A stretch of DNA of 64,000 nucleotides from Escherichia coli (GCF_051903065.1 NZ_CP178438.1); one strand, 5' to 3'. Positions 19,533 to 29,394 are shown, counted from the first letter of the stretch. Numbers and translations are program-made. Notes: generated by a model from the letters alone, not told the origin.

Positions 19533-20783
19533 ATGGAAAGTAAAGTAGTTGTTCCGGCACAAGGCAAGAAGATCACCCTGCAAAACGGCAAACTCAACGT
19601 TCCTGAAAATCCGATTATCCCTTACATTGAAGGTGATGGAATCGGTGTAGATGTAACCCCAGCCATGCTGAAAGTGGTCGACGCTGCAGTCGAGAAAGCC
19701 TATAAAGGCGAGCGTAAAATCTCCTGGATGGAAATTTACACCGGTGAAAAATCCACACAGGTTTATGGTCAGGATGTCTGGCTGCCTGCTGAAACCCTTG
19801 ATCTGATTCGTGAATATCGCGTTGCCATTAAAGGCCCGCTGACCACTCCGGTTGGTGGCGGTATTCGCTCTCTGAACGTTGCCCTGCGCCAGGAACTGGA
19901 TCTCTACATCTGCCTGCGTCCGGTACGTTACTATCAGGGCACTCCAAGCCCGGTTAAACACCCTGAACTGACCGATATGGTTATCTTCCGTGAAAACTCG
20001 GAAGACATTTATGCGGGTATCGAATGGAAAGCTGACTCTGCCGACGCCGAGAAAGTGATTAAATTCCTGCGTGAAGAGATGGGCGTGAAGAAAATTCGCT
20101 TCCCGGAACATTGCGGTATCGGTATTAAGCCGTGTTCGGAAGAAGGCACCAAACGTCTCGTTCGTGCAGCGATCGAATACGCAATTGCCAACGATCGTGA
20201 CTCTGTGACCCTGGTGCACAAAGGCAACATCATGAAGTTCACCGAAGGCGCGTTTAAAGACTGGGGCTACCAGCTGGCGCGTGAAGAATTTGGCGGTGAA
20301 CTGATCGACGGCGGCCCGTGGCTGAAAGTTAAAAACCCGAACACCGGCAAAGAGATCGTCATTAAAGACGTGATTGCTGATGCATTCCTGCAACAGATCC
20401 TGCTGCGTCCGGCTGAATATGATGTTATCGCCTGTATGAACCTGAACGGTGACTACATTTCTGACGCCCTGGCAGCGCAGGTTGGCGGTATCGGTATCGC
20501 CCCTGGCGCAAACATCGGTGACGAATGCGCCCTGTTTGAAGCTACCCACGGTACTGCGCCGAAATATGCCGGTCAGGACAAAGTTAACCCAGGCTCTATT
20601 ATTCTCTCCGCAGAGATGATGTTACGCCACATGGGTTGGACCGAAGCCGCAGACCTGATTGTTAAAGGTATGGAAGGCGCAATCAACGCCAAGACCGTAA
20701 CCTATGACTTCGAACGTCTGATGGAAGGCGCTAAACTGCTGAAATGTTCAGAGTTTGGTGATGCGATCATCAAGAATATGTAA
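19533..20783 (+). CDS. icd: Isocitrate dehydrogenase (NADP)
   Basis: 416 aa, [38 protein letters not shown]...; uninterrupted 3' end. Confidence 0.97.
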
Positions 20784-20805
20784 TCACTACATGTGTTAAA
20801 TATTT

Positions 20806-20838
20806 AAACGGGCGTATAACACGCCCGTTGTTTTATTT
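20806..20838 (+). terminator. icd rho-independent terminator
   Basis: Stem acgggcgt / acgcccgt followed by a T-run, about 25 nt after the icd stop. Confidence 0.75.
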
Positions 20839-20885
20839 ATGTGGATATTATTAATAGCATATCGAGCATATTTATATAAAACCTA

Positions 20886-21209
20886 TTACTTGAGCCCATA
20901 TGGGCATATTTTTATAATGCAACTCTTATGCAAACATTTATTTGTTATTTCGCTTTCTCCTGGAGGACACTCTTGACTGCTTTTAAGTAAACTCCATAAA
21001 TTCTTGTTGAATGGTGCAATGTTATAAATAGTAATAGGATATTCTTTATCCTTAAGGATAATACCAGGCTTAACCGGTGTAAATATACTTCCAGGAGGAA
21101 GAAATATAGTAGATTGATACCAGATAATCATTTTCATATCACCCCATATGGCTGAAAAAGATATGCCGCATGTAGGTTGAATTACCGTGTCAATTACTAC
21201 CCACTTCAT
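20886..21209 (-). CDS. iraM: Anti-adaptor protein IraM-like (RssB inhibitor)
   Basis: 107-aa [26 protein letters not shown]...CPYGLK in an AT-rich setting next to icd; identity recalled from memory, not searched. Confidence 0.6.
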
Positions 21210-21665
21210 TTGTTATGTCTTATCCCACGGTATTTAATATAGTTCATTTGGATGTTCATTTCTTTATTTTGCATATGAGTATATTACCCCTTCAAAAAAT
21301 AAATTAATTAAAACGATTGCTTATATAAAACAAAATTTAAAGCAAGGAATCTCAATGGATGTTAAACAAAATGAGATTTAGTGAAAACAATAAATTATTC
21401 ACTTCGTTTTAGATTTGTTTAGCTATAATGTTATACATTCAAATGACTGACCATCCTGTAATTAAAACATAGCCTTTATGCTACTTTGTGCCAATTTGCT
21501 AAACATTATGGTTGCCTTTTTATATAACGATAATAATGAATATAAGCATGACATGAGAATAAGGTTTCAATTTTTGAGTTATATAGGAAAGGTTTAACCT
21601 GTTCCTGGCTAAAATACATATAACTGGATGATGACTAAACCAAAACACATGTGCGTTAAGTATTG

Positions 21666-21696
21666 AAACGGGCGTATGGCACGCCCGTTGTTTTTA
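21666..21696 (+). repeat. Second copy of the icd-terminator hairpin (orphan, possible att-site remnant)
   Basis: acatgtgcgttaagtattgaaacgggcgtatggcacgcccgttgttttt closely matches 20791-20838; no plus-strand gene upstream of it. Confidence 0.6.
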
Positions 21697-21904
21697 TAAA
21701 TATATTAACCGTTATAAAATAACGTATAGAAAGTCAAGTGATCACATTTCAAATGTCAATTTGATAGTATTGGCCTGGTGATTATTTATGGGTAGCAATA
21801 AAAGGACAGTATTTATCATCCATAGGGATAGTCTCTGTACTTTTATTCCCATTATGCTAATGCCTTACTGAATTATGAAGCATTTCTTAAGCATCCAACT
21901 TTAG

Positions 21905-22309
21905 CTAGATTAATGGTTTATTATTTTCTACATCTTCAATATATAAAAGCGTATTATCAATGGCGTAGTAACTGCGTTTGTTATGATTAACATCAGTAAC
22001 CCAACGGAAAACGCCCGCGTCTGCCAGTATTGAACAGTATTCCCGAAATGTAGATTTTCCGCAAATATGAAGCAATGCGGCCTCTTTTATTTTAGCAGGG
22101 TTCTTGGTCGTACTAACTTTTAACAGGTTCCTGGTTCCTCTTAATAACAAAACCGTGTCATCGTGAGTAATAATTCTGATGTTATCCGTAGCCAGATAAT
22201 AAATGTAATGTGCAATACGGTGATGTTTTAATTCTGAATAAAACCAGGAGAAGTTTTGCTCTTTTCTCACTTGCTCAAACATCTTTTGAAAAACAACGAC
22301 CTGATCCAT
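21905..22309 (-). CDS. ycgX: Uncharacterised 134-aa protein (YcgX-like)
   Basis: 134-aa ORF between iraM and bluR, matching K-12 order; assignment rests on position and length. Confidence 0.55.
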   Translation of the reverse strand: MDQVVVFQKMFEQVRKEQNFSWFYSELKHHRIAHYIYYLATDNIRIITHDDTVLLLRGTRNLLKVSTTKNPAKIKEAALLHICGKSTFREYCSILADAGVFRWVTDVNHNKRSYYAIDNTLLYIEDVENNKPLI

Positions 22310-22529
22310 CAGGATAATAACCTCTTGTTAGTTGTGAGACTGCGTAGTGTGCACGATCGGTTTTACCACTTCAATCTGGTCTGTCCTTTGGCTGTGATAT
22401 GTACAAAGTGTGAAAGGGGGATTACCTGAATTCTCCCGGTGAGCATTTTGTAATGGACCAGCTCCGGTACAAACGCTGTTGTGGGTTCAGATTATAACAT
22501 TCTGTCTAAGGGGCGGGATAAAGGTGAAA

Positions 22530-23261
22530 TTAGGGGGCATGAAAGATGACTTTATAACCTTGCTCACCCCAGTGTTGTAAAAGTTCATTTTGCCTTCTCG
22601 TTGGTGCCATGCCTGTCCAGACAATCAATGTTTGCGTCGGGAACAGTTCCGGGCGCGGTGATTCAATGGGATCAGCAAGAACAGAAATATGCCATCCTGA
22701 CAATGATAAACGCCATGCTTCCAGCCACAATCGAGCTCTCTCTTCAACATTCCACGCCATCAGAATGGCTTCTTTACCGGGCTTACGGCGCATTTCGAAA
22801 AGCGAGGCTGCTGCATATTCAATTAATGCGCCGTCAAACATACTGCTCATAATGCGGGAGGTGTTGTGATCAAGCACGAGACGCTGGCGAACAGGAAGGT
22901 AAACATGATTAATCAATTGATCTACTGGGTACTCTCGACCCAGTGAAATAATTCTCGCGCGTAGTTTGGCAGGATTAGCCATACGAAGAATTGACATCAT
23001 CTCTTCTTGCAAGCGGCTCCAGTCATCTTCCGTATCCTGGCTGGTGGTTTCCAGTAATGCTTTAACTTTGCCTACAGGGACGCCATTACTTATCCAACGC
23101 TTGATCTCTTCGATACGTTGTATGTCTTCTTCATCAAAGAGTCGGTGTCCGCCTTCACTGCGCTGTGGTTTTAACAAACCGTAGCGGCGTTGCCAGGCCC
23201 GGAGAGTGACAGGATTAATCCCGCAACGTTCAGCAACATCACCAATGCTGTAATAAGCCAC
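22530..23261 (-). CDS. bluR: MerR-family transcriptional repressor BluR
   Basis: N-terminal MerR helix-turn-helix ([30 protein letters not shown]); 243 aa; adjacent to bluF. Confidence 0.9.
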
Positions 23262-23464
23262 AATTCCTCCTTGCGGTCATAAATCTCCGTCGCCTGTATA
23301 CGACCCAATAATACTTTGTACAATATACGCTAAAATTGTACAAAGTATAAATAAGATTTTAGCTAAATTGGATGAAACATTATTTTTAATGTGGATTAAA
23401 TTAAAACATAACGTATTAATTTTCACGATGATTTCCAGAAACATGCAAAATAATGTGCTGAAAA

Positions 23465-24676
23465 TTATTTTTTCTCCGGCCACGCAACTGAAGGGATACC
23501 ATTCAATTTAGCTTTAGCAAACAGATCCCCCTGAAACATCTCAATTCCTGCGGATTCAAGCCACATCCACTCTTCTGGTGTTGCCACGCCCATAGCACTG
23601 ACTTGAATTTCAAGTGATGTACAGCATTTTATGATCGCCTGAATAATTGCCTGCCGTGGTCCGCTTTTATGAACATTGGTAATCAATTCCTGACTGATTT
23701 TAATTCTGTCAGGCTGGAAGCGTGACAGGAGTAACAAACCAGCAAAACCTGCGCCAAAATGATCAATTGCTACACTGATACCGGCAGCCTTTAGCGATTT
23801 AACCGCTTCGGCAAACTCATCAAACCGAGATATGACTTCACTTTCAGTAAATTCAACGATGATTTGTTCAGGCACCAGACCATTGGCCTTTATTTCATCA
23901 AGTAAAAAAGAGACTGCGTCAGGCTCGTTAACCAGGGTCATAGGTAATAGATTGATAGATATCATTTTATCACCGAGCTCAAGTGCGTGTGCCATCGCGA
24001 ATACAAGCGCCTTACTTTTGAGATCCGCTGTGTAGATTTCCCCGTCTTTACGCTGCCCAACCGCTATAGCTGACGGGCTGTCTTCATTTTTTTGCACAAT
24101 GGCTTCAAAAGCGATTATCCGCCGCGATAAGGGATCAACAATAGGATGAAAGGCAAAGTGGTCGTTTATATTTGGTGAAAGGGTACAGGAATCAAGTTCT
24201 TTATCAGATCCGTCAGCGATAAAAAGCCAGGAGTCTTCAGCAGGAATCTCGAAATAGGTTGATTGTTCGGTTGCAAGGACAAAAGTACGAAAAAATTGTA
24301 GCGCTCTGTCATCATAAGTTAGCTGAAATTTTGATGTGCCTTTGTCGAATACGGCCTGTAAAACGTCATCTCGCTCGTGCAGGCGTAAATCAAATAATTC
24401 CATTCCCGCTTTGCCAAAACGGCGAGCAGGCGCGTAATCGCACAGCAGCTCAACAATATTATAGTGCCGTGGATCCTGGCATATAGCCCGATATATCATT
24501 TTAACCTGTTCTTCCGGACCTTCCAGAAGCTGGAAAAAATGAGAACCATTAAACAGTAAGATCCCTGTTACGTCAGACTGCATGTTCCTGCGATTTGCTA
24601 TCGAAACCATTTCTTCGATTTTTTTGACAGGTTCGTCGTCACGTATATGGCTACGATAAATAAGGGTGGTAAGCAT
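23465..24676 (-). CDS. bluF: Blue-light sensor BluF (BLUF domain plus degenerate EAL domain)
   Basis: Start at MLTTLIYRSHIRDD (BLUF), 26 codons inside the track ORF; C-terminal EAL-like domain. Confidence 0.9.
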   Translation of the reverse strand: MLTTLIYRSHIRDDEPVKKIEEMVSIANRRNMQSDVTGILLFNGSHFFQLLEGPEEQVKMIYRAICQDPRHYNIVELLCDYAPARRFGKAGMELFDLRLHERDDVLQAVFDKGTSKFQLTYDDRALQFFRTFVLATEQSTYFEIPAEDSWLFIADGSDKELDSCTLSPNINDHFAFHPIVDPLSRRIIAFEAIVQKNEDSPSAIAVGQRKDGEIYTADLKSKALVFAMAHALELGDKMISINLLPMTLVNEPDAVSFLLDEIKANGLVPEQIIVEFTESEVISRFDEFAEAVKSLKAAGISVAIDHFGAGFAGLLLLSRFQPDRIKISQELITNVHKSGPRQAIIQAIIKCCTSLEIQVSAMGVATPEEWMWLESAGIEMFQGDLFAKAKLNGIPSVAWPEKK

Positions 24677-24989
24677 TAACTGTCCAGGGTAATGGGAGAG
24701 GCGAGAGTAAGACGGTAACAGACATATCTTCCGGTGTCTTTCTTTTAATACCAAAACATAACTGTTTCTTTACATTGATAAAAAATGGAAAAAGTTGAAC
24801 ACGAGTTGGCGAAAATTTTTGTATAGGTTGTCAGTTAAATGATGCAATATGTTTTATCATAACGTATTGTTTTATATGCATTAGCACTAATTGCAAAAAA
24901 TTAATTTATCATTCTGTACACATATTTCGTACAAGTTTGCTATTGTTACCTCACTTAACATTGATTAACATTTTTAACAGAGGCGTAGC

Positions 24990-25226
24990 ATGCATCAAAA
25001 TTCAGTGACTTTAGATTCTGCGGGAGCAATCACTCGTTACTTTGCAAAAGCGAACTTGCCTACTCAGCAGGAAACTCTCGGGGAAATTGTGACTGAGATT
25101 TTGAAAGATGGACGTAATCTGAGTCGAAAGTCGCTTTGTGCCAAACTTCTTTGCCGACTGGAACAAGCGACAGGGGAAGAGGAACAGAAACATTATAATG
25201 CACTAATTGGGTTGCTTTTTGAATAA
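24990..25226 (+). CDS. ycgZ: Small protein YcgZ (connector to the Rcs system)
   Basis: 78-aa ORF divergent from bluF; first gene of the ycgZ-ymgA-ariR-ymgC run. Confidence 0.88.
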   Translation: MHQNSVTLDSAGAITRYFAKANLPTQQETLGEIVTEILKDGRNLSRKSLCAKLLCRLEQATGEEEQKHYNALIGLLFE

Positions 25227-25268
25227 TGCAACAGCCTGATTATTTAACAGGTTAGCTATGAAGTCGTT

Positions 25269-25541
25269 ATGAAGACATCTGATAATGAAAGTATAAAATA
25301 TGAAATTACTGGCCAGGCGGTGCTCCAGATACTGCGCATGAAGATAAATTTTTCGGTGCAGACTCTTATTAAGCAATTACTCGTAATGAAATCGGCTGAG
25401 GAAAATGCTTTCCGACGAGATTTAATTGACAGCATAATTCGTGATTTTAGCAACAGTGATACAGGAGGGCCAAACCGAAGAACAGCGATAGCTGACAATA
25501 AAAGTATGTTCAATGGTAAGAAAATAAACAGAATACATTAA
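25269..25541 (+). CDS. ymgA: Small protein YmgA
   Basis: 90-aa ORF in the expected operon position. Confidence 0.88.
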   Translation: MKTSDNESIKYEITGQAVLQILRMKINFSVQTLIKQLLVMKSAEENAFRRDLIDSIIRDFSNSDTGGPNRRTAIADNKSMFNGKKINRIH

Positions 25542-25569
25542 AATTTCATAAGTAAGATGAGAGGTTACC

Positions 25570-25836
25570 ATGCTTGAAGATACTACAATTCATAATGCAA
25601 TAACTGATAAAGCGTTATCAAGTTACTTTCGCAGTTCGGGTAATTTGTTAGAAGAAGAGTCAGCAGTGTTAGGGCAGGCTGTGACTAATTTAATGCTTTC
25701 AGGCGATAATGTTAATAATAAAAATATTATCTTAAGTCTGATACACTCCCTGGAAACAACAAGTGATATTCTCAAAGCTGATGTGATCAGAAAAACACTG
25801 GAAATCGTGTTGCGATACACAGCGGATGACATGTAA
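25570..25836 (+). CDS. ariR: Biofilm/acid-resistance regulator AriR (YmgB)
   Basis: 88-aa ORF in the expected operon position. Confidence 0.88.
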
Positions 25837-25948
25837 CTTTTAATTATTAAGTATAAGTTTATAGAAAACTCATTCATCTTATTTTTGTCTGTCGCTTTAG
25901 ACTATACACAGCATAATTTTATTGGGTTAATATTTCTACGAGGCTGAC

Positions 25949-26197
25949 ATGAATAATTCAATCCCAGAGAGATTTATTTTTCAATGTGCTTTGTTTAAAA
26001 ATCTCGAGAGGGAGGTGTTCATGACGCATGGGTATGTTGATAGTCATATTATTGATCAGGCTTTACGCTTGCGTTTAAAAGATGAAACCAGTGTGATTCT
26101 TTCTGATCTCTATCTGCAAATCTTGCAGTACATTGAAATGCATAAGACTACACTAACGGATATCATTATTAATGACAGGGAATCCGTGCTCTCTTAG
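25949..26197 (+). CDS. ymgC: Small protein YmgC
   Basis: 82-aa ORF ending the operon. Confidence 0.85.
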   Translation: MNNSIPERFIFQCALFKNLEREVFMTHGYVDSHIIDQALRLRLKDETSVILSDLYLQILQYIEMHKTTLTDIIINDRESVLS

Positions 26198-26532
26198 AAC
26201 TTGAGTAAGGTTATAGAATAAACATCAGCTGTATCATCATGCTGGTGCAAAGTGAGCATTTCAGGCGTTATGCTTTCTTAATATATCCGCAATATCAGGG
26301 GGCAAACAGGAATGGAGAGCGCTCGTTTTCCATTCTTGACGCCTGATATCCCACCTAATTTGTTTAACTCTGCCTACATTGTGCTCAATAATTAATAGGT
26401 TAGATGAAGATGGAGAAAATTTTATCTTCGGCGTGGATATTTCTTATGCTCTCTACCATGCTCTCTGTAGACGCCAGCGCGAGCGAATGAACGTCATTTT
26501 CATGTATTAAACCCTTTGTTCGGGACAAGCGA

Positions 26533-28056
26533 ATGCGCAATACACTCATACCCATCCTCGTTGCGATATGCTTGTTTATAACCGGTGTCGCTATTTTGAA
26601 CATCCAGCTCTGGTATTCCGCAAAAGCAGAGTACCTGGCGGGAGCAAGATATGCCGCCAACAATATCAATCATATACTTGAAGAAGCGTCACAGGCGACT
26701 CAAACAGCGGTTAACATTGCCGGGAAGGAATGCGACCTCGAGGAGCAATATCAGCTTGGCACTGAAGCAGCTCTGAAACCTCACCTGCGCACAATCATCA
26801 TTCTCAAACAGGGAACGGTCTGGTGTACATCCTTACCGGGGAATCGGGTCCTGCTGTCTCGTATTCCTGTTTTCCCGGACAGTAATTTACTGTTGGCTCC
26901 GGCAATCGACACCGTTAATAGATTACCTATCCTGCTCTATCAGAGCCAATTTGCAGATACGCGCATTTTGGTTACGATAAGTGATCAGCATATTCGCGGG
27001 GCGCTTAATGTACCCTTGAAAGGGGTAAGGTATGTATTACGCGTGGCGGATGACATTATTGGACCTACGGGTGATGTGATGACGCTTAATGGACATTATC
27101 CCTATACCGAGAAGGTTCACTCCACAAAATATCATTTCACTATTATCTTTAACTCGCCGCCACTCTTTAGCTTCTACAGACTTATCGATAAAGGCTTTGG
27201 GATTTTGATCTTTATTCTGTTAATCGCCTGCGCCGCTGCCTTCCTGCTAGATAGGTATTTCAATAAAAGCGCAACGCCTGAAGAGATCCTGCGGCGGGCT
27301 ATAAATAATGGGGAGATCGTCCCTTTTTACCAACCAGTGGTGAATGGTCGGGAAGGGACATTGCGGGGAGTTGAGGTGTTAGCCCGCTGGAAACAACCTC
27401 ACGGTGGATATATTTCACCCGCGGCATTTATTCCACTTGCTGAAAAATCCGGATTAATCGTTCCGCTTACGCAAAGCCTGATGAATCAGGTTGCCAGACA
27501 GATGAACGCTATCGCGAGTAAATTGCCGGAAGGTTTTCATATTGGAATTAATTTTAGCGCCTCGCATATTATTTCGCCGACGTTTGTCGACGAGTGCTTA
27601 AATTACCGTGACAGTTTTACCCGCCGCGATTTAAACCTCGTTCTGGAAGTTACCGAGCGTGAGCCATTAAATGTTGATGAAAGTCTGGTTCAGCGGTTGA
27701 ACATTCTGCATGAAAATGGTTTTGTCATCGCGCTGGATGATTTCGGTACTGGCTACTCAGGGCTTTCTTATCTGCATGACCTGCATATTGATTATATCAA
27801 AATTGATCACAGTTTCGTTGGTCGCGTCAACGCAGACCCAGAATCAACCCGAATTCTGGATTGTGTATTGGATCTGGCGCGTAAACTTTCGATCAGTATC
27901 GTCGCTGAAGGTGTCGAAACGAAAGAACAACTTGATTATCTGAACCAAAATAATATCACATTTCAGCAGGGTTATTATTTCTATAAACCTGTTACATACA
28001 TCGACCTGGTCAAAATTATCCTTTCTAAACCGAAGGTGAAGGTTGTGGTTGAGTGA
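26533..28056 (+). CDS. pdeG: CSS-motif periplasmic sensor / EAL-domain c-di-GMP phosphodiesterase
   Basis: 507 aa; N-terminal transmembrane segment, periplasmic domain with Cys pair, second transmembrane segment, then an EAL domain (EVLARW, DDFGTGYS). Confidence 0.9.
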   Translation: MRNTLIPILVAICLFITGVAILNIQLWYSAKAEYLAGARYAANNINHILEEASQATQTAVNIAGKECDLEEQYQLGTEAALKPHLRTIIILKQGTVWCTSLPGNRVLLSRIPVFPDSNLLLAPAIDTVNRLPILLYQSQFADTRILVTISDQHIRGALNVPLKGVRYVLRVADDIIGPTGDVMTLNGHYPYTEKVHSTKYHFTIIFNSPPLFSFYRLIDKGFGILIFILLIACAAAFLLDRYFNKSATPEEILRRAINNGEIVPFYQPVVNGREGTLRGVEVLARWKQPHGGYISPAAFIPLAEKSGLIVPLTQSLMNQVARQMNAIASKLPEGFHIGINFSASHIISPTFVDECLNYRDSFTRRDLNLVLEVTEREPLNVDESLVQRLNILHENGFVIALDDFGTGYSGLSYLHDLHIDYIKIDHSFVGRVNADPESTRILDCVLDLARKLSISIVAEGVETKEQLDYLNQNNITFQQGYYFYKPVTYIDLVKIILSKPKVKVVVE

Positions 28057-28187
28057 AAATCGATCAGTAAGGCCATAGTGCGGTGTAATTATAGACAGCT
28101 AATTAGCTCGTTGCCTCTTGTTACTATTGTTCATTATTTTATTTGCTATAATTGTTTGAAAGTTTTGACAGGATTGCCATTAGTAGC

Positions 28188-28406
28188 ATGAACAATAGTA
28201 ATAATCTGGATTATTTCACTCTCTATATCATCTTTTCCATTGCATTTATGCTGATCACTCTCCTGGTCATCCTTATTGCAAAACCCAGTACCGGGCTGGG
28301 AGAAGTGCTTGTGACGATAAATTTGCTTAATGCCCTTGTTTGGCTGGCGATCAATCTGGTTAATCGATTAAGGGAAAGACTCGTCAGCCACAGGGATCAG
28401 CAATAA
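28188..28406 (+). CDS. ymgF: Small inner-membrane protein YmgF
   Basis: Start at MNNSNNLDYFTLYII (ATG 28188); the track ORF begins at an upstream TTG; two predicted transmembrane helices. Confidence 0.8.
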   Translation: MNNSNNLDYFTLYIIFSIAFMLITLLVILIAKPSTGLGEVLVTINLLNALVWLAINLVNRLRERLVSHRDQQ

Positions 28407-28805
28407 TCTTTCAGTTTCTCACTGTCAGTATGCGGCTGAATGGGGTGCTGACAGTGAACGCCTGGATCATTGAAGGAAAGGAATTATTGCGCAAATAGTT
28501 GTCAACCCTGGTGTTATCACAGTTGTTTTTATATATCATTGAAATAATTTCTATGGCAACTATCAATGATAGTGATGTCGAAGAGTTATTTGTTAAACAA
28601 AATCGTCACCTCAAAGTGATCAATGTCATGAAAATAAGGTGAAAAATGATAATGCCGACTTATTTATCATTTATATATTGTAGCTGTTTATCTATTTAAA
28701 TTTCTTGTGCTTTTGTTTTTGTCTTTACCCTCCGTTTTGGTAATCTGAACTCATAGGTTATTTGACCAGGAATGTTTGTTAATCCAATGAATGGATGGTT
28801 AATCT

Positions 28806-29394
28806 ATGAAACTGAAAAAACTCCCCGGGTTTAGTTTAGGACTTATTGCTCTGGCGGTGGGTAATGCATATGCAACACAATTGTTGGATGATTATAGTAT
28901 AATTTCCTATATAACCGATGAAGAATCGCCGATTCAAATCAAAGATAATACTTTGAAAAGTAATGAAGAATATCTAACCACTGAAGACGAAAGTCATGCT
29001 GTGAAAGTGGATGACGGTGTAACTAGATATATAAATAATGCCAGTGTGATGACTAGTGGTGATGGATCTTATGGTATTTCTGTTGATAGTCAAAACAAAG
29101 TATTATATATAAGCGATAGCGATATTAAGACCTCTGGAAGCGTATCTAACAAAGAAAATAACCAAGATGTTAATGGAGGGATAACAGCCAGCGCAGTAGT
29201 CAGTGAATTTGGTGGCACCATCGTTATGAATGGTGATAATTTAGTCGAGACGGGGGGGGCATATTCAGCGGGACTTTTAAGTCAGGTTAATGATTCTGGA
29301 AATGTGGAAAATAACACTCGTCTTGAAACCACAGATAAAACGATCATTGTTACCTCTGGGGAAAATGCAGTAGGTGTTCTTGCATGTTCAAGTC
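28806..29394 (+). pseudogene. ycgH: Autotransporter gene, 5' part (signal peptide and passenger start), interrupted by IS903
   Basis: Sec signal MKLKKLPGFSLGLIALAVGNAYA; the reading frame runs into the IS left end and stops inside the inverted repeat. Confidence 0.85.

Follow-up and report, generated by a model that had tools for sequence, protein, structure and literature searches.

A 64,000-nucleotide stretch of DNA from Escherichia coli (NZ_CP178438.1, assembly GCF_051903065.1), referred to here as the window, contains between positions 22,530 and 28,056 the genes for the repressor BluR, the blue-light sensor BluF, the divergently transcribed small-protein operon ycgZ-ymgA-ariR-ymgC, and the EAL-domain protein PdeG. 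There is very little doubt that this region is the canonical, already characterized E. coli BluR/BluF module for blue-light and low-temperature responses together with its neighbour pdeG, and that it is undamaged. A first-pass annotation had described the region as known biology rather than as something novel, and the comparison with K-12 agrees with that description. Function of this allele is predicted from protein identities of 97-100%, and no feature of the sequence counts against the assignment or suggests a departure from the published mechanism.

In that mechanism, the sigma-S-dependent ycgZ-ymgA-ariR-ymgC operon is kept repressed by BluR, which belongs to the MerR family and is a paralogue of MlrA (PMC3509220). 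BluF is activated by blue light through its BLUF domain and binds BluR directly, which frees BluR from the DNA; the contact with BluR is made by the EAL domain of BluF, which is degenerate and catalytically dead (PMC3509220). The released operon is reported to be transcribed in K-12 as a single sigma-S-dependent polycistronic messenger. Two of the operon's products act as activators of the Rcs phosphorelay, namely YmgB (AriR) and, to a certain extent, YmgA, leading to increased colanic acid and decreased curli (PMC3509220). The gene set, the operator and the protein domains in the window all match this described system, as expected if the region encodes the blue-light and low-temperature circuit feeding Rcs that had been proposed for it. 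The main use of this result is a clean annotation, and it adds nothing new to the known system: in this E. coli lineage from human faeces, the biofilm switch responding to blue light and cold is of the standard type and intact, and PdeG is full-length, which is the majority state. Two further sites in the region are candidate additional operators, and these constitute a small, testable addition that leaves the classification as a known system unchanged.

Integrity of the module

The whole difference between the window and the corresponding DNA of E. coli 23CRST027 (NZ_AP045789.1; human faeces, Ecuador) amounts to 3 of 64,000 positions, and because of this near-identity the RefSeq annotations of that record and of K-12 MG1655 (NC_000913.3, the K-12 reference used here) can be transferred directly onto the window. 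The open reading frame list and the reference annotation place all seven genes where the first-pass annotation had put them (Table 1). The mechanical list prolongs bluF to a TTG start, giving a product of 429 aa; the 403-aa form is adopted here. Coding regions were compared with K-12 codon by codon, and all seven genes have the K-12 length, start codon and stop codon. The same is true of iraM, ycgX and ymgF, which are likewise without internal stops, and no frameshift, internal stop or coding indel relative to K-12 was found in the ten genes compared in this way. The intactness of the reading frames, asserted earlier from the sequence of the window, thus withstands exact comparison with the reference proteins. 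The products differ from those of K-12 by one residue in BluR, eight in BluF, two in YcgZ, five in YmgA, one in AriR, none in YmgC and six in PdeG. In the DNA alignment with K-12, which covers positions 20784-28900, indels are confined to non-coding DNA (4 bp at 21293, 1 bp at 23441 and 4 bp at 26306-26309), and the remaining gaps correspond to the icdC segment and the ends of the alignment. The indel at 23441 is a 1-bp deletion in the bluF-bluR spacer. An Rfam scan of positions 20000-30500 at the gathering threshold returned no RNA genes.

The identities of the MerR-like repressor and the BLUF-EAL sensor are borne out by their domains. BluR has an N-terminal MerR-type helix-turn-helix domain at residues 4-71 (PF13411, E = 1.4e-18; PF00376, E = 8.4e-13), followed by matches to MlrA_helical (PF22270, E = 5e-29) and MlrA_C (PF22267, E = 3e-32). 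BluF has a BLUF domain at residues 2-92 (PF04940, E = 2.8e-24) and an EAL domain at residues 173-388 (PF00563, E = 1.5e-49). The tyrosine, glutamine and methionine of the BLUF flavin pocket are the key residues of the photocycle, and BluF possesses all three (Y7, Q49 and M92). The EAL domain retains the degenerate residues of K-12 BluF, namely H177, I193, Q195, T247, H306, S328, M362 and A365, which are the eight non-consensus positions that Tschowri et al. (2012) changed to consensus in the BluF-M8 variant (PMC3509220). The four small genes of the divergent operon occur in the order ycgZ-ymgA-ariR-ymgC and with their K-12 lengths; YmgA and YmgC have no Pfam match.

The control region between bluF and ycgZ is preserved as well: it has the K-12 length, shows 95.8% identity to K-12 with no indels, and its footprinted operator is unchanged. 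Its size had been given previously as 235 bp, which is incorrect, as the interval measures 313 bp both in the window and in K-12. The published 5' ends of bluR, bluF and ycgZ lie 54, 30 and 36 nt upstream of the respective start codons, that of bluR having been determined by primer extension (PMC3509220), and these map to positions 23315, 24706 and 24954 of the window. The bluF and ycgZ transcription starts are therefore 248 bp apart, and since the interval itself is 313 bp, neither reading yields 235 bp.

A search of this interval located the published BluR operator, TGTACACATATTTCGTACA, at the ycgZ promoter. DNase I footprinting of BluR at ycgZ had identified a direct repeat, GTACA...GTACA, that overlaps a palindrome, TGTAC...GTACA, and covers the -35 element and spacer, and point mutations in this operator abolish both binding and repression by BluR (PMC3509220). 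The operator is also unchanged in strains CFT073 and AVS0151, and it is kept in all 11 other loci that hold the region, with a centre-to-centre spacing of 13-14 bp. When one mismatch is allowed, the operator pattern has 3 matches in the window versus 0.68 expected, a count equalled in 7 of 100 shuffles; because this count is too weak alone, conservation across genera was used instead in judging further sites.

Table 1. Positions of the genes and regulatory features of the window that are considered in the text
Feature	Position	Strand	Description
bluR (ycgE)	22530-23261	-	243 aa, GTG start; MerR-family, MlrA-like repressor; annotated bluR in NZ_AP045789.1
bluR promoter	23315-23351	-	-35-like TTTATA (23351-23346), 18-nt spacer, -10-like TATATT (23327-23322), start near 23315
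Inverted repeat ATACTTTGTACAAT-N10-ATTGTACAAAGTAT	23311-23348	-	Perfect 14-nt arms over the bluR core promoter; candidate BluR/MlrA-type operator
bluF (ycgF)	23465-24676	-	403 aa; BLUF-EAL blue-light sensor, anti-repressor
SrsR (YgfI) box GCAGGTTTTGC	23742-23752	-	Inside the 3' part of bluF; sole exact match in the window
bluF/ycgZ divergent control region	24677-24989		313 bp; 13 substitutions and 0 indels versus K-12
Upstream box TTGTATAG	24819-24826		95 bp upstream of the ycgZ operator; candidate auxiliary site
BluR operator at the ycgZ promoter, TGTACACATATTTCGTACA	24915-24933	+	Identical to K-12; sole exact TGTACA-N8-GTACA match in the window
ycgZ -10-like TATTGT and start	24941-24946; start near 24954	+	Start from PMC3509220; hexamer read from the sequence
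ycgZ	24990-25226	+	78 aa; PF10798 (YmgB/AriR family)
ymgA	25269-25541	+	90 aa; annotated ymgA, without Pfam match
ariR (ymgB)	25570-25836	+	88 aa; PF10798, E = 6.8e-26
ymgC	25949-26197	+	82 aa; protein identical to K-12
pdeG (ycgG)	26533-28056	+	507 aa; membrane CSS-domain EAL phosphodiesterase, full-length allele
ycgR	55938-56672	-	Flagellar brake protein; annotated in NZ_AP045789.1

Candidate additional operators

Two TGTACA-type sites, one at the bluR promoter and the other in the distal part of the bluF-ycgZ spacer, are candidate extra operators of the BluR/MlrA type. Of all perfect inverted repeats in positions 22300-26600 whose arms are within 40 nt of each other, the first of these sites is the longest, and both of its arms include the GTACA motif of BluR and MlrA as part of TTGTACAA. 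The two TGTACA hexamers inside the palindrome (23317-23322 and 23337-23342) form the sole exact TGTACA pair separated by 8-30 bp in the window, which has nine exact TGTACA sites in all and for which shuffles predict 0.03 such pairs.

The palindrome overlaps a sigma-70-like promoter, extending from the -35 element of bluR to position +5, and the -10 element lies 7 nt upstream of the published start. The promoter hexamers come from a consensus scan, and we infer their pairing with the primer-extension start. Over positions 22300-26600 that scan found 10 promoter-like sites versus 11.4 expected and one terminator-like site versus 3.5 expected; because it was uninformative overall, only the one site matching the bluR start already published was used. 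Since the repeat overlaps the core promoter, a protein bound to it would be predicted to occlude RNA polymerase.

The arms of the palindrome do not vary among four diverse E. coli strains, of which CFT073 has a single change in the loop. At the corresponding position, a TGTACA pair 17-20 bp apart is found in Citrobacter, Cedecea, Superficieibacter, Klebsiella and Silvania, which with E. coli makes six genera, and the DNA around the pair has a mean column identity of 45% across genera.

The second candidate is a single box upstream of the ycgZ operator that reads TTGTACAA in most other genera and TTGTATAG in E. coli. In alignment A3, which comprises 12 sequences and has a mean column identity of 57%, residues T144, G145, T146, A147 and A149 of the box are invariant, and the box is the only invariant island of the distal bluF-ycgZ spacer. 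The distance between the box and the ycgZ operator is 94-96 bp in 10 of 11 sequences and 120 bp in K. pneumoniae.

Taken together, these features suggest that the conserved TTGTACAA pair over the bluR core promoter is probably a further binding site of BluR or of its paralogue MlrA, an arrangement that would result in negative autoregulation, and that an auxiliary site may be provided by the lone conserved box situated some 95 bp upstream of the ycgZ operator. The specific proposal, which is put forward tentatively and at somewhat less than an even chance of being correct, is that BluR is negatively autoregulated through the double TTGTACAA operator at the bluR promoter and may also reach, perhaps through looping, the third conserved box, which lies nine helical turns upstream of the operator of ycgZ. 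A report that elevated BluR expression is toxic counts in favour of the added operators. If the proposal is true, relief of BluR by blue light would also raise bluR transcription, so that a built-in negative feedback loop, which the published model lacks to the extent that it could be read, would be added to the textbook anti-repressor circuit. No earlier report of bluR autoregulation or of extra BluR sites was found in the searchable full text, including PMC3509220, PMC5491885, PMC9181523 and PMC10505187; the 2009 Genes & Development paper, RegulonDB and EcoCyc were beyond this scope, so that absence is not proven.

Several observations weigh against the additional operators. The boxes at bluR are spaced 17-20 bp apart versus 13-14 bp at ycgZ, and the spacing at bluR is variable among genera; because the spacings differ and vary, the same BluR dimer geometry cannot serve both sites. 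The TGTACA pair at the bluR promoter is absent from Kluyvera, and in E. coli itself the upstream box has the degenerate form TGTATA.

The palindrome could instead be bound by MlrA rather than BluR, which would place bluR under the curli activator pathway. At csgD the sequence bound by MlrA is TGTACA-N12-TGCACA, and weak binding of that fragment by BluR was seen by electrophoretic mobility shift (PMC3509220). With a hexamer separation of 11-14 nt, the bluR site is nearer to this arrangement than to that of the ycgZ operator, which has N7. Binding by MlrA is nevertheless unlikely, as a site reaching from -35 to +5 is in the position of a repressor site and MlrA is described as an activator of csgD, and as the pair accompanies bluR in all genera examined other than Kluyvera, which is the pattern expected for an autoregulatory site.

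Alternatively, the TGTACA boxes outside the known operator could be non-regulatory, reflecting either chance occurrence in AT-rich intergenic DNA or the sites of an unrelated factor. The shortness of TGTACA and the frequency with which shuffled windows reach the observed one-mismatch count are in keeping with this, as are the degenerate upstream box of E. coli and the missing pair in Kluyvera. An origin of this kind is unlikely, though, given that nine exact hexamers in 64 kb yield a single close pair where 0.03 are expected, that alignments with a mean identity of 45-57% have no invariant islands other than the boxes, and that a spacing of 94-96 bp to the ycgZ operator is so widely kept. The palindrome is retained as a candidate autoregulatory operator of BluR or, alternatively, a candidate MlrA operator.

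Six of the nine exact TGTACA hexamers cluster within 4.4 kb (22400-26824), and two of these lie at 22400, upstream of ycgX, and at 23618, inside bluF. A further regulatory input is indicated by a box for SrsR (YgfI), an activator input reported upstream of bluR in a table from genomic SELEX (systematic evolution of ligands by exponential enrichment; PMC9181523). Six one-mismatch matches to this box occur elsewhere in the window. Apart from SrsR/YgfI (PMC9181523), no other reported regulatory input at bluR was found in the searchable literature.

Allelic variation, distribution and neighbouring genes

The substitutions in BluF relative to K-12 are A165T, T169N, A225V, T227A, N260D, A266G, I292V and I397V, none of which falls in the BLUF domain or at any of the eight degenerate EAL positions; the single change in BluR is T152A. 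Within the 75 bp upstream of the ycgZ start codon there is one substitution, T to C at 24950 (position -4), which lies downstream of the operator. The C is common to CFT073 and AVS0151, so that K-12 is the outlier at this position among four strains. That the BluF changes, BluR T152A or the -4 substitution weaken or rewire the light response, leaving a module that is present but functionally altered, is very improbable: the eight BluF substitutions are all in the linker and the EAL domain that contacts BluR, and the change at 24950 does lie in the ycgZ promoter, but the BLUF domain, the eight studied EAL positions (PMC3509220) and the operator are all untouched, K-12 rather than this allele is unusual at 24950, and the differences are normal within-species variation because most genomes are only about 97-98% identical.

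The last figure comes from 5,426 complete E. coli genomes, most of which have about 97-98% identity to this allele over the module. With presence defined as a coverage of at least 80%, bluR-bluF-ycgZ is found in 4,916 of these genomes (about 91%) and is near-core in E. coli. A 7-kb query around the bluR-pdeG region matched 5,107 of the 5,426 genomes, and the match to 23CRST027 was 100%. Outside E. coli, where one genome per species was surveyed with BluR as the query, 12 loci were found: five in Citrobacter, one in a Citrobacter-like metagenome-assembled genome labelled Raoultella, two in Klebsiella, and the others in Cedecea, Superficieibacter, Kluyvera and Silvania. The order bluR-bluF followed by divergent ycgZ-(ymgA)-ariR is kept in 11 of 11 full-length loci, in agreement with the conserved synteny of the module stated in the 2012 paper (PMC3509220).

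PdeG is one of five CSS-domain phosphodiesterases of K-12 (PdeB, PdeC, PdeD, PdeG, PdeN; PMC5897775), and full-length K-12 YcgG displayed phosphodiesterase activity in a Vibrio cholerae reporter strain in a colony assay (PMC6385356). Enzymes of this class have a periplasmic domain of about 200 aa that carries two conserved cysteines and is bounded by two transmembrane segments. The protein encoded in the window has a CSS-motif domain at residues 31-217 (PF12792, E = 1.4e-31) with C67 and C98 present, and an EAL domain at residues 251-486 (PF00563, E = 2.3e-66). Residues D403, D425, E459 and E462, which align with degenerate positions of BluF, are intact, and the motifs EVLAR, N (GINFSA), ExxE (LEVTERE) and DDFGTG can be read from the translation, as can, by eye, hydrophobic stretches at about residues 5-25 and 222-242. 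From its likeness to the K-12 protein, PdeG is predicted to be an active membrane-bound CSS-domain phosphodiesterase of cyclic di-GMP (c-di-GMP). The 5' 672 nt of pdeG (26533-27204) are covered in 3,926 of the 5,426 genomes and the 3' 852 nt (27205-28056) in 5,002, such that about a fifth of E. coli genomes keep the EAL part without the sensor half, consistent with the truncated ycgG2 allele described for B2 extraintestinal pathogenic E. coli (ExPEC), whose 283-aa product is without the membrane and sensor part (PMC6385356). For pdeG, then, the word intact is informative, as the window holds the full-length majority form, with the sensor half found in about 72% of genomes.

Membership of pdeG in the conserved module was considered and rejected. 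In other genera no full-length relative of pdeG adjoins the module, and the only matches there are to the EAL domain of bluF; PdeG is placed outside the conserved module because the two are adjacent only in E. coli. The ymgC-pdeG spacer (26198-26532) is the segment most diverged from K-12, with 90.7% identity and the 4-bp insertion at 26306-26309, and it has no Rfam match and no annotated gene.

The first-pass annotation had also called the region dense in c-di-GMP-related genes. This holds as far as pdeG and ycgR are concerned, the latter being located within the window as had been said, but it does not extend to BluF, which is only a degenerate relative of such proteins and should be left out of the tally of c-di-GMP enzymes, given that c-di-GMP is neither bound nor degraded by its EAL domain (PMC3509220).

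Further features lie elsewhere in the window. The e14 prophage is absent, and icd, with its stop at 20783, runs directly into the iraM region from 20784; the K-12 counterpart has the 15.2-kb e14 in the 3' end of icd and the icdC remnant. The autotransporter gene ycgH (28857-32535) is split by IS903B, an IS5-like insertion element, at about 29394-30453, the transposase gene occupying 29427-30395. In K-12 ycgH is likewise a pseudogene, but without an annotated insertion element. Between dadX and ldcA (50423-54216), the reference annotation has a gene for a leucine-rich-repeat protein (50423-51859), two small hypothetical genes, and a cvrA pseudogene that is without the C-terminus (52546-54216). 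The segment between ymgE and treA (57177-63603) has genes annotated as encoding a TonB-dependent receptor, ModD, an S-adenosylmethionine methyltransferase, and the ATPase, permease and binding protein of an iron ATP-binding cassette transporter.

Comparison with known systems

The closest comparison is with the BluR/BluF system of K-12 (PMC3509220), with which the module shares gene order, orientation, gene lengths, start and stop codons, domains, degenerate EAL residues and the operator. The differences are allelic substitutions only, including those of the control region, along with the 1-bp deletion in the bluF-bluR spacer, and the upstream context differs in that K-12 carries e14 at icd and this strain does not. 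PdeG is similarly close to its K-12 counterpart, having the same 507 aa, the CSS-motif, both cysteines and the EAL domain, and differing in six residues. It differs from the ycgG2 product of B2 ExPEC (PMC6385356) in being full length rather than the 283-aa form.

The bluR-promoter site, if real, would tie BluR to the TGTACA-pair type of operator used by MlrA and by the light-responsive class II LitR proteins. Class II LitR proteins are MerR-family repressors that are released by a blue-light LOV protein and bind TGTACA-N12-TGTACA (PMC9758184). Like the MlrA box and the class II LitR operators (PMC3509220, PMC9758184), the bluR site has two TGTACA hexamers, and like LitR Site 1 it overlaps a core promoter. 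The exact 12-nt separation of the class is found at the bluR site in Klebsiella and Cedecea, whereas the hexamers are 14 nt apart in E. coli, 13 in Citrobacter, and 11 in Superficieibacter and Silvania. The bluR site therefore appears to resemble the TGTACA-N12-TGTACA class as a candidate, and membership in it is not claimed.

A second parallel for the candidate bluR site is MerR itself, which represses its own divergent promoter (MerR-type negative autoregulation). Common to both cases is a MerR-family repressor gene whose promoter is overlapped by a palindrome of the repressor's own recognition type. The arrangements differ in that MerR uses one operator shared by both divergent promoters, whereas the bluR candidate would be a separate site, approximately 1.6 kb from the ycgZ operator.

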